Below, in pieces: positions 5,403-6,435 of a stretch of 64,000 bases of DNA. Both the position numbers and the translations under genes were made by a program. The notes under the pieces were generated by a model. It saw nothing but the letters and a program-made list of their open reading frames with translations. It had not been told where the DNA came from and ran no database searches. Source of the DNA: Escherichia phage Ec_O157kw. How positions within the stretch are numbered: the first letter of the stretch is position 1; every line of letters starts with the position of its first letter. The stretch is taken from sequence record PV857777.1, one strand, 5' to 3'.

Positions 5403-5639
5403 ATGAAAATTGTTATGGGATGCTTAGCAGTTTGTTTAGTTGCATTAGTAGCAGTTCCATTTGTTAGTGTTGAAAATGATACTCAACCTGTGATTGAATC
5501 TAGCACCGTTATTCACACTAATGGTAAAATATCAGTTAAAATTGATGATAATCTTCATGTGAATACAAATGGATCTTTAGGTGTGCAAATGGGTAATACC
5601 TGCATAAGCACTACTGGAGTAATTACTACTTGCATTTGA
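5403..5639 (+). CDS. small secreted protein (N-terminal signal peptide)
   Basis: ATG 5403 after SD GGAGAA; 78 aa; MKIVMGCLAVCLVALVAVPFVSVEN hydrophobic leader. Confidence 0.6.
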   Translation: MKIVMGCLAVCLVALVAVPFVSVENDTQPVIESSTVIHTNGKISVKIDDNLHVNTNGSLGVQMGNTCISTTGVITTCI

Positions 5640-5649
5640 GGAAATTATT

Positions 5650-6030
5650 ATGAAAATCGCTATTTTGGTTATTGCATTAGGTCTTACTGGTTGTGTGGCT
5701 CAAGGACCGGTAGTAAATCAGTCTGATGTAGGAAAAATTGTAAACTGTTCAAGCAAGTTTTATAATCCTAATGTCAAGTGTTATAAAGAAGCTCCAAAAC
5801 AGACAGTAGAACAAATGCAGGCGAATTTTGACGAAGCTATTCGTCCAGATGAATCTGCTCAAGCATATCGTAATTCTGATGTAATTACACGCGAAGAAAA
5901 AATTGAAAACTACTGCGCCGAAATTTGGGCTAATTGGGCTAATAATTACCAATGGCGTACTGGTAAAAATGCTCCGATGGAGTATGTAGTGAATTCTTAT
6001 AATTCATGTGTAAAAAATTTGACTAAGTGA
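5650..6030 (+). CDS. putative lipoprotein (lipobox LTGC)
   Basis: 126 aa; MKIAILVIALGLTGCVAQ signal plus lipobox cysteine. Confidence 0.65.
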   Translation: MKIAILVIALGLTGCVAQGPVVNQSDVGKIVNCSSKFYNPNVKCYKEAPKQTVEQMQANFDEAIRPDESAQAYRNSDVITREEKIENYCAEIWANWANNYQWRTGKNAPMEYVVNSYNSCVKNLTK

Positions 6031-6037
6031 GGAAAAC

Positions 6038-6289
6038 ATGGAAACTTTAGTAGCAGGTTCAATTTTTATGGTTTTAGTTTCAGGTGTGTTGGCTATTATT
6101 ATATACATGCTTCCATGGTTTATCGCCTTGATGCGTGGGTCAAAATCGACAGTAGGAATCTTTTTCACATCTTTACTGTTTAACTGGTCAATTATTGGTT
6201 GGTTTATTACATTTATTTGGTCAATTGCGGGTGAAACTAAAAAGTCTGCACAACCAAATCAGGTAATTATCATCAGAGAGAAGGAATGA
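6038..6289 (+). CDS. imm: superinfection immunity membrane protein Imm
   Basis: 83 aa, two TM segments, SD GAGGAAAA; position between 43 and 42; length matches T4 Imm. Confidence 0.85.
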   Translation: METLVAGSIFMVLVSGVLAIIIYMLPWFIALMRGSKSTVGIFFTSLLFNWSIIGWFITFIWSIAGETKKSAQPNQVIIIREKE

Positions 6290-6435
6290 AAAGCAAAATT
6301 ATAACAGTGTTGCTTTTAATCTTGATGGTTATAATAAGTATATACTATAGCGTAACAGTTCCTGCTATGATTCCAACTCTTATCATAGGGTGGGGTTTAT
6401 TACTGTTACAATTTAAATATGAATGCATCAATTGA
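6286..6435 (+). CDS. small hydrophobic peptide (49 aa)
   Basis: ATG overlaps imm stop (ATGA); single TM-like segment; below the ORF-track size cutoff. Confidence 0.4.
   Translation: MKSKIITVLLLILMVIISIYYSVTVPAMIPTLIIGWGLLLLQFKYECIN
6309..6335 (+). promoter_or_regulatory. putative MotA-dependent middle promoter upstream of gene 42 (MotA box TTGCTTT, -10 TATAAT)
   Basis: gtTGCTTtt, 12-nt spacer, then TATAAT at 6330-6335. Confidence 0.35.

Follow-up and report, generated by a model that had tools for sequence, protein, structure and literature searches.

The stretch of DNA analysed here, 64,000 nucleotides from Escherichia phage Ec_O157kw (sequence record PV857777.1; hereafter the window), comes from a Tequatrovirus and carries four small genes, orf78, imm.1, imm and orf49, between genes 43 and 42. 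Our analysis suggests that the product of the second of these, a predicted lipoprotein that corresponds to T4 Imm.1, is functionally coupled to its neighbour Imm, and on the basis of sequence comparison we place the probability of this coupling at roughly 45%. Imm is an inner-membrane protein that prevents DNA transfer from superinfecting T-even phages (PMC6832632, PMC7677548), and the mechanism by which it halts DNA transfer at the inner membrane is not understood (PMC6832632). Because a lipoprotein gene is kept beside imm despite changes in gene order and a relocation to a site by spackle, Imm.1 may constitute the periplasmic arm of the exclusion or envelope-protection function of Imm.

Conserved linkage of Imm.1-type lipoprotein genes to imm

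A gene for an Imm.1-type lipoprotein adjoins imm in seven T4-like genera and in three metagenomic lineages, an adjacency that was examined directly in about a dozen genomes and, beyond these, deduced from record counts. It spans three gene orders and two genomic sites, and every examined member of DUF5481, the Pfam family of T4 Imm.1, adjoins imm. The metagenomic locus L014 has the order 43, imm.1, imm, 42, the locus L015 has 43, imm.1, imm, orf46, 42, and the locus L017 reads 61.4-like, imm.1, imm, orf49, while RB69 (Mosigvirus) has the order dmd, 61.4, imm.1, imm, sp. As in the window, the Imm.1 homolog of RB69 (33% identical) is encoded directly upstream of Imm (64% identical); unlike in the window, the RB69 pair lies in the dmd/61.x region, with no orf78. 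The move spans approximately 10 kb and has brought the pair next to spackle, the other exclusion gene.

Longer lipoproteins occupy the same position in other genera. In Moonvirus NM4.3, Klebsiella phage Roth66, Serratia phage Muldoon (Muldoonvirus) and Salmonella phage S16 (Gelderlandvirus), a product of 146-162 residues is encoded directly upstream of imm; the NM4.3, Roth66 and Muldoon products were translated and each carries an LTGC lipobox, and the S16 product was matched by similarity only. Dhakavirus has the order 43, imm, (orf45), followed by the gene for a 166-residue LLSGC lipoprotein. The lipoproteins that were translated and aligned have in common with Imm.1 the post-cysteine motif G-x-VV..S-VGK, an invariant tyrosine and two invariant C-terminal cysteines, and the Dhakavirus-type and Moonvirus-type proteins match the same gene in Salmonella phage CGG4-1. 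On this basis we call these lipoproteins of 146-166 residues Imm.1-like and regard them as probable, though unproven, homologs of DUF5481.

The record counts agree with a co-occurrence of the lipoprotein and Imm. The lipoprotein types are present in 656, 148, 131 and 60 records, as against 1001 phage records for Imm, and Klebsiella phages contribute 135 records for the lipoprotein and 135 for imm.

Imm.1 is a predicted outer-membrane lipoprotein

Neither of the two exported proteins encoded upstream of imm had been recognised in the earlier, sequence-only reading of this DNA. The larger, of 126 residues, can now be identified as T4 Imm.1, with a match to DUF5481 (PF17578) at 237.6 bits against a cutoff of 27 (E = 1.7e-71), 98% identity to T4 NP_049661 and membership of phrog_1754; the smaller, the orf78 product, still has no assigned function. 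Imm.1 is at least 97% identical among T2, T4 and the window phage. Its family is tiny: at 50% identity it forms 6 clusters in a set of 1.84 billion representatives, at 90% it forms 8, and a search of IMG/VR added only 5 loci.

The N-terminus of Imm.1, MKIAILVIALG-LTGC, fits a basic n-region, a hydrophobic h-region and a lipobox of the form [LVI][ASTVI][GAS]C. The open reading frame (ORF) carries MKIAILVIALGLTGC, and a PROSITE-style (PS51257-style) lipobox pattern was matched at Cys15; the match to Pfam LPAM_1 is weak (E = 0.44). Export and lipidation of Imm.1 are highly probable on these signals. Under the +2 rule, an Asp after the lipobox cysteine leads to retention in the inner membrane. The +2 residue of Imm.1 is Val; in the alignment, the relatives with a lipobox show G, A, V, Q, Q, A and A at this position, never Asp, so that Lol sorting to the outer membrane is predicted. 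Two relatives have no lipobox cysteine and have kept the signal peptide, which points to periplasmic location as the constant feature of the family.

The mature domain of Imm.1 is helical and contains four cysteines. The AlphaFold2 (AF2) model has an overall predicted local distance difference test score (pLDDT) of 66.7 and is confident only in a C-terminal helical hairpin at residues 81-125 (pLDDT ~90), the two helices of which, 81-104 and 110-125, carry the invariant C89 and C120. Ratios of nonsynonymous to synonymous substitution rates (dN/dS), calculated from 7-13 Tequatrovirus loci, are 0.04 for imm.1 and 0.06 for imm, and 0.008 and 0.05 for the flanking C-terminal part of gene 43 and N-terminal part of gene 42.

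Foldseek searches with this partly confident model gave no match in the PDB at E <= 0.001 and, in BFVD, only family members and one marginal lipoprotein of Citrobacter phage CF1 (E = 0.02). A profile search against the PDB returned nothing at E <= 1, profile searches against NCBIfam and PADLOC returned nothing meaningful, and a literature search on imm.1 yielded almost nothing. In the T4 RefSeq record (NC_000866, NP_049661.1) the imm.1 product is named 'iduronate sulfatase', a label that has no Pfam, NCBIfam, PDB or fold support and looks like an annotation error. This label aside, no homolog is annotated with a non-envelope function, an observation that the sequence-only reading had named as one that would speak against it.

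Properties of Imm and its neighbours in other phages

The third gene of the cluster had been proposed to be imm, and this assignment is borne out by a PF14373 match of 58.2 bits against a cutoff of 27.9 (E = 7.7e-16), a match to phrog_1039 (E = 3.6e-32) and 98.8% identity to T4 Imm. On the Kyte-Doolittle scale its hydrophobic spans comprise residues 1-35 and 39-64, with a short basic loop, RGSKS. Given T4 genetics and this degree of identity, the window Imm would be expected to block the entry of superinfecting DNA, as is known for T4. The C-terminal tail of Imm, QVIIIREK, was considered as a feature that might track the presence of the lipoprotein and was discarded for lack of a clean correspondence: a similar tail occurs in Acinetobacter phage LZ35, where there is no lipoprotein, and is missing from Muldoon.

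Two neighbourhoods of imm in other phages may echo the themes of an exported partner and a coupled micro-protein. In the Salmonella siphovirus ST1UNAM (L028, 542-1062) imm is preceded by the gene for a 97-residue signal-peptide protein with two cysteines, and in LZ35 (L027, 886-1208) imm is followed by an overlapping ORF for a 37-residue transmembrane product.

Proposed functional coupling of Imm.1 to Imm and its principal alternative

If Imm.1 and Imm are coupled, the early transcription unit would equip the envelope of a freshly infected cell with four small proteins, among them Imm.1, which would be made as a lipoprotein and sorted by the Lol system to the outer membrane. Anchored in the inner leaflet of that membrane, Imm.1 would present a helical domain, stabilised by disulfides, to the periplasm. 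Its target could be the tail tip of the incoming phage or the injection site on its outer-membrane/peptidoglycan side, with Imm acting at the inner membrane. Imm.1 would in this case be an auxiliary component and not an essential one. A more far-reaching version of this proposal, which we regard as doubtful, would make T4-like immunity a two-component trans-envelope device formed by an Imm.1-type protein of the outer membrane and Imm of the inner membrane, and would separately give the orf49 micro-protein a fitness role of its own.

Several observations weigh against coupling. By hhalign, DUF5481 and the lipoproteins of 146-166 residues align with a probability of 97% only over the signal peptide and 15 further residues, and the mature parts alone reach a probability of 57-63% (E = 1e-4 to 9e-6). 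Imm homologs of the non-T4 phages LZ35 (Acinetobacter) and Gordonia have no lipoprotein neighbour, and neither Pfam, the PDB, NCBIfam, PADLOC nor Foldseek supplies a structural or sequence link from Imm.1 to a protein of known mechanism. Work by Lu and Henning in 1989 is said to have found that plasmid-borne imm alone excludes T4; if this is so, Imm.1 is not required for the basic block. Finally, knock-down of imm.1 in the T4 CRISPRi-ART data was scored 'Not Fit' (-0.77; PMC11879866 supplement), whereas imm was scored 'Fit' (1.40, p = 0.022) and is listed as non-essential in the gene table of the same paper (PMC11879866). The 'Not Fit' score implies that Imm.1 is dispensable for single-cycle fitness in laboratory E. 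coli; exclusion lies outside the scope of that assay.

The difference between the two knock-downs also fits the view that Imm.1 has an envelope function of its own, unrelated to Imm, and lies near imm only as a fellow early exported protein. Such a function could consist in masking or altering an outer-membrane component in the manner of Llp or Cor, in inhibiting a periplasmic enzyme in the manner of Spackle or the MliC/PliC lysozyme inhibitors, or in countering a host envelope defence. An outer-membrane-type lipoprotein with a disulfide-bonded periplasmic domain would suit any of these roles, Imm exists without the lipoprotein in some non-T4 phages, and the position of the RB69 pair beside sp may mark that site as a general envelope-protection island and not as a module specific to Imm. 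We nevertheless consider a wholly independent function somewhat unlikely, since an adjacency maintained over three orders, two loci and at least seven genera exceeds what shared timing requires, and most early genes show no such lasting linkage. Receptor masking in particular accords poorly with what is observed, because T-even phages use different outer-membrane receptors and Imm.1 is nearly invariant among T2, T4 and the window phage.

Comparison with characterised phage proteins bears on the same alternative. T4 Spackle (gp61.3), a periplasmic inhibitor of the gp5 tail lysozyme with a structure-based mechanism (PMC7677548), might be the best functional analogy for Imm.1. Like Imm.1, it is early, exported, small, helical, disulfide-bonded and periplasmic, and it acts in superinfection exclusion (PMC7677548); Spackle is soluble, whereas Imm.1 is predicted to be lipid-anchored in most lineages. 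Homology between the two was examined and rejected, hhalign giving a probability of 27% that is confined to the signal peptide. Llp of T5 and Cor of T1, phi80 and HK022 offer a second comparison as early, phage-encoded outer-membrane lipoproteins that block superinfection, in their case by masking one receptor, FhuA. Membership of Imm.1 in this group was likewise set aside, as its only Pfam match is DUF5481 and neither the PDB profile search (E <= 1) nor Foldseek against the PDB with the partly confident model (E <= 0.001) gave a match. The lack of similarity to the Llp, Cor, Sp and lysozyme-inhibitor families counts further against an independent function of these kinds. The earlier proposal that both exported proteins upstream of imm may extend exclusion gains indirect support for Imm.1 from the conserved adjacency to imm; for orf78 nothing in our analysis supports it.

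Anatomy of the cluster and its early transcription unit

The coordinates of the cluster and its flanks are collected in Table 1. As first described, four consecutive genes lie between the gene 43 terminator and gene 42; all four ORFs are intact on the + strand, each has a Shine-Dalgarno sequence, and all four products have envelope-targeting features in the form of a signal or anchor, a lipobox or hydrophobic spans. We hold this anatomy and the gene identities with high confidence. The spacing between imm.1 and imm is 7 nt and the Shine-Dalgarno sequence of imm overlaps the stop codon of imm.1; the ATG of orf49 overlaps the imm stop codon (ATGA), and gene 42 starts 7 nt beyond the end of orf49. 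The early transcription unit has the order early promoter, orf78, imm.1, imm, orf49, gene 42, glucosyltransferase, and the cluster forms its promoter-proximal part.

Table 1. Coordinates of the imm cluster and flanking features in the window.
Feature	Position	Strand	Description
gene 43	2526-5222		upstream flank of cluster
intrinsic terminator of gene 43	5235..5257	+	hairpin AGGGACC-TCCG-GGTCCCT and T run
T4-type early promoter	5319..5368	+	AT-rich upstream block; -35 GTTTACA 5339-5345; TGG 5360-5362; -10 TACTAT 5363-5368
orf78 (phrog_4189)	5403..5639	+	78 aa from ATG; N-terminal hydrophobic signal or anchor
imm.1	5650..6030	+	126 aa; predicted lipoprotein, LTGC, Cys15; DUF5481
imm	6038..6289	+	83 aa; PF14373; two transmembrane segments, inner membrane
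orf49 (phrog_3610)	6286..6435	+	49 aa; two short hydrophobic helices
gene 42 (dCMP hydroxymethylase)	6443..7183	+	next gene of early unit

A conserved region of 1.2 kb that includes the cluster occurs in 515 phage records, nearly all of them Tequatrovirus, with the best match in Citrobacter phage PhiZZ6 (99.8% identity). T4 shows the same arrangement, in the order 43, terminator, early promoter, imm.1 (T4p046), imm (T4p045), 49-codon ORF, 42. The window departs from T4 in having a 247-nt orf78 module exactly at the imm.1 start, with a new Shine-Dalgarno sequence for imm.1, and in its downstream gene, a T2/T6-type beta-glucosyl-HMC-alpha-glucosyltransferase (HMC, hydroxymethylcytosine) where T4 has beta-gt.

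The hairpin that follows gene 43 (5235-5252) is a GC-rich stem of 7 bp followed by a T run. Its folding energy is -13.9 kcal/mol (z = -3.2), an equally good fold being found in none of 200 shuffles; the hairpin is kept in T4 and four other phages and carries a terminator annotation in phage DalCa. The cluster had been credited with a terminator of its own. The upstream hairpin is real and belongs to gene 43, and after orf49 the cluster has none: no terminator-like site lies between orf49 and gene 42, so that the cluster makes up the 5' portion of an early unit, which continues into gene 42.

The early promoter that had been proposed for the cluster also holds up. The region 5320-5415 is one of six copies in the window of a long T4 early-promoter repeat, among which AAAAATTTTTCACAAAAC-GTTTACA-N17-TGGTACTAT is invariant; in the cluster promoter TGGTACTAT stands at 5360-5368. 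The promoter fits TTTACW-N17-TAYWAT, the early-promoter consensus of the PST/T4 pair (PMC4122927). The other five copies (~60-90 nt), at window positions 53524-53581, 33698-33788, 24993-25092, 36837-36919 and 33190-33275, have the conserved block TTTTCACAAAAC-GTTTACA-N17-TGGTACTAT. A MotA-box middle promoter within orf49 was considered on the strength of TTGCTTTTA-N11-TATAAT, which is similar by eye, and was rejected for want of a match to TGCTTNA.

Further features lie in the neighbourhood of the cluster. At 7174-8022, after gene 42, the window encodes a 282-residue protein that starts at a GTG within the end of gene 42; in PhiZZ6, a nearly identical phage, this protein is annotated as beta-glucosyl-HMC-alpha-glucosyltransferase, and the T4 genes beta-gt and segA are absent at this position. 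In L014 the position after gene 42 is taken by a 279-residue Pfam TAGT-family gene. On the other side, an ORF of 73-77 residues lies between regA and gene 43 at 2214-2447; its PhiZZ6 equivalent is annotated as hypothetical, and the L014 gene at the regA/gene 43 position matches Pfam Phage_RB18_ORF43. The gap between regA and gene 43 is only 78 nt in T4, which makes this ORF another small accessory insert beside gene 43. In Shigella phage JK42 (L018, 1-1777) the annotation divides gene 43 into two overlapping pieces; the product labelled 'hypothetical protein' (1259-1777) is the C-terminal end of the DNA polymerase, so that the gene is either frameshifted, truly split or affected by a sequencing error.

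Probable insertion of orf78 at a PeSL-like cassette

The first gene of the cluster, orf78, appears to be a recently inserted, fast-evolving gene for an exported accessory peptide. It is absent from T4 and from the locus L003. Relative to the window, T4 and one IMG/VR contig lack exactly 247 nt, located between two copies of ATGAAAAT, an 8-nt repeat at the insertion junction, and otherwise correspond to it; T4 imm.1 therefore uses the ribosome-binding site that serves orf78 in the window. A MEN-x-MK leader reading upstream of imm.1 is common to divergent lineages without orf78, so that orf78 is most simply explained as an insertion within Tequatrovirus. orf78 DNA is present in 321 records as against 501 records with Tequatrovirus-type imm.1 (~64%), and deep homolog searches found no orf78 relatives beyond Tequatrovirus.

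An alternative start codon, TTG at 5391, would give an orf78 product of 82 residues; the Shine-Dalgarno sequence GGAG at 5393-5396 fits the ATG instead. The protein has one N-terminal hydrophobic stretch at residues 1-23, four cysteines, and a beta-rich domain of about 55 residues that is rich in Thr, Asn and Gly and ends with C67...C77. Its signal region consists of K2 and the hydrophobic residues 3-23, with two candidate cleavage sites, LVA/V (17/18) and VSV/E (23/24), both non-canonical, and the N-terminus may be a signal anchor rather than a cleavable signal for signal peptidase I. Some alleles have an ALA/A cleavage site, and in others, for example P0014/phage HY01, a 7-residue in-frame duplication in the signal region creates a canonical LAAC lipobox, the UniRef label of P0014 being 'Lipoprotein'. 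The orf78 protein may thus be lipid-anchored in some phages and not in others.

Within Tequatrovirus orf78 has a dN/dS of 0.36 and a synonymous excess (Fisher p = 0.002). Its indels, of 21 and 6 nt, are all in frame and correspond to a 7-residue CLVALAA duplication and to ID repeats, and the gene is intact in ~300 records; it very probably encodes a real exported protein. In a comparison of the window with phage slur07, orf78 shows a nucleotide identity of 84.6% and its flanks one of 97-98%, a divergence that suggests two old alleles exchanged by recombination. The AF2 model of the protein is poor (pLDDT 52.4), and there was no structural or profile match to a protein of known mechanism.

The insertion site resembles the promoter-early stem-loop (PeSL) cassettes of T4-type phages, which shuffle ORFans (PMC2839356). 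It combines the elements by which such regulatory cassettes are recognised, namely a terminator hairpin, an early promoter, a variably present ORF in orf78, and recombination within the cassette (PMC2839356, PMC4122927). As in PeSL cassettes, a stem-loop terminator and an early promoter (TTTACA-N17-TACTAT) flank the variable ORF, and the junctions fall between the -10 box and the Shine-Dalgarno sequence or start, both in Shigella phage CT01 and in T4 compared with the window; unlike the classical examples, the window cassette stands at the edge of the core gene 43 instead of in a hyperplastic region. CT01 (L012, 1014-1540) carries at the cluster site a chimeric rearrangement with the order early promoter, imm.1 codons 1-36, orf78 codons 28-64, a second -10/Shine-Dalgarno copy and a full imm.1, which looks like a product of PeSL-type recombination.

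The plasticity of this site invites a reading in which the four genes have no function in common: they would be dispensable ORFs that happen to lie side by side in a changeable part of the genome delimited by a promoter-terminator cassette, linked through history and for want of recombination sites between one another. The spot is indeed recombinogenic, with orf78 present or absent at the 8-nt repeat, a chimera with a duplicated promoter/Shine-Dalgarno segment in CT01, orf78 alleles more diverged than their flanks, and a type of cassette known for shuffling ORFans. Selection and movement make this reading improbable: imm.1 and imm are under strong purifying selection, they moved jointly in Mosigvirus and left orf49 behind, and in Dhakavirus the order changed yet the adjacency was kept.

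orf49 is tied to the 43/42 locus rather than to imm

The last gene of the cluster would encode an inner-membrane micro-protein that stands apart from the others and is conserved widely; its translation would be coupled to that of the preceding gene at the 43/42 locus. In the window its product is hydrophobic over residues 5-43, with a Pro-containing break, and carries the motif P-x-MIPT...GW...Q-x-KY-x-C-[FI]-N. Homologs of 45-49 residues occur in 761 phage records, and a family motif, (I/V)Y(Y/W)...P-x-MIPT..(G/A)W....Q-x-K(Y/F)-x-C-F-N, is kept in five genera: Tequatrovirus, Mosigvirus, Dhakavirus, Kagamiyamavirus and Kanagawavirus. The ORF is intact in T4 (NC_000866, ~26,227-26,376, complement; L001 5228-5377), where the reference record leaves it unannotated. 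Its dN/dS is 0.34 within Tequatrovirus and 0.14-0.35 across genera, with synonymous sites near saturation in the latter comparison.

The start of orf49 always overlaps the stop codon of the upstream gene, and the identity of that gene varies. orf49 follows imm in Tequatrovirus, Dhakavirus Bp7, L015 and L017. In Mosigvirus JK42, in Kagamiyamavirus EcS1 and in Kanagawavirus Entb_45 it lies downstream of gene 43 beside sugar-modification genes, start-stop coupled to the arabinose-5-phosphate isomerase gene that it follows, and in RB69 (Mosigvirus) the orf49 homolog has likewise remained near gene 43, behind an arabinose-5-phosphate isomerase gene; no imm was found beside sp at the EcS1 locus checked. 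orf49 is tied to the 43/42 locus and not to imm. We regard it as almost certainly a real protein. It gave no structural or profile match to a protein of known mechanism, and a literature search for T4 ribosome profiling returned nothing relevant. One of the gene-42 guides in the CRISPRi-ART data lies over the 3' end of orf49. The 'Fit' result for imm, obtained by knock-down at its ribosome-binding site, could be due to lost translation of the coupled orf49.

That orf78, orf49 or both are chance ORFs in leader or spacer RNA conserved for regulation, as the missing T4 annotation of orf49, the only moderately low Tequatrovirus dN/dS values (0.34-0.36) and the low-confidence orf78 model might suggest, is very improbable in view of the conservation of the orf49 motif across genera at saturated synonymous sites, its invariable start-stop coupling, and the in-frame indels, strong Shine-Dalgarno sequence, widespread intactness and synonymous excess of orf78.

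Discussion

The four genes of the cluster are already catalogued, under T4 gene names or as PHROGs, and are annotated in hundreds of genomes. What our comparisons add, by inference, is how widely the lipoprotein gene and imm are linked, that orf49 is independent of imm, and where exactly the junction of the orf78 insertion lies within a PeSL-like cassette. The picture of T-even biology is unchanged unless experiments reveal a phenotype. The cluster nonetheless documents a precise accessory-gene insertion at a promoter/terminator cassette, and it draws attention to a 49-codon gene that is conserved in at least five Tevenvirinae genera and has no annotation in the T4 reference. If the two-component arrangement outlined above is true, the phenotype that imm produces on its own would explain why the pairing of Imm.1 with Imm escaped notice for decades. 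A periplasmic lipoprotein that nearly always accompanies imm provides a concrete hypothesis, and a candidate handle on what Imm touches.

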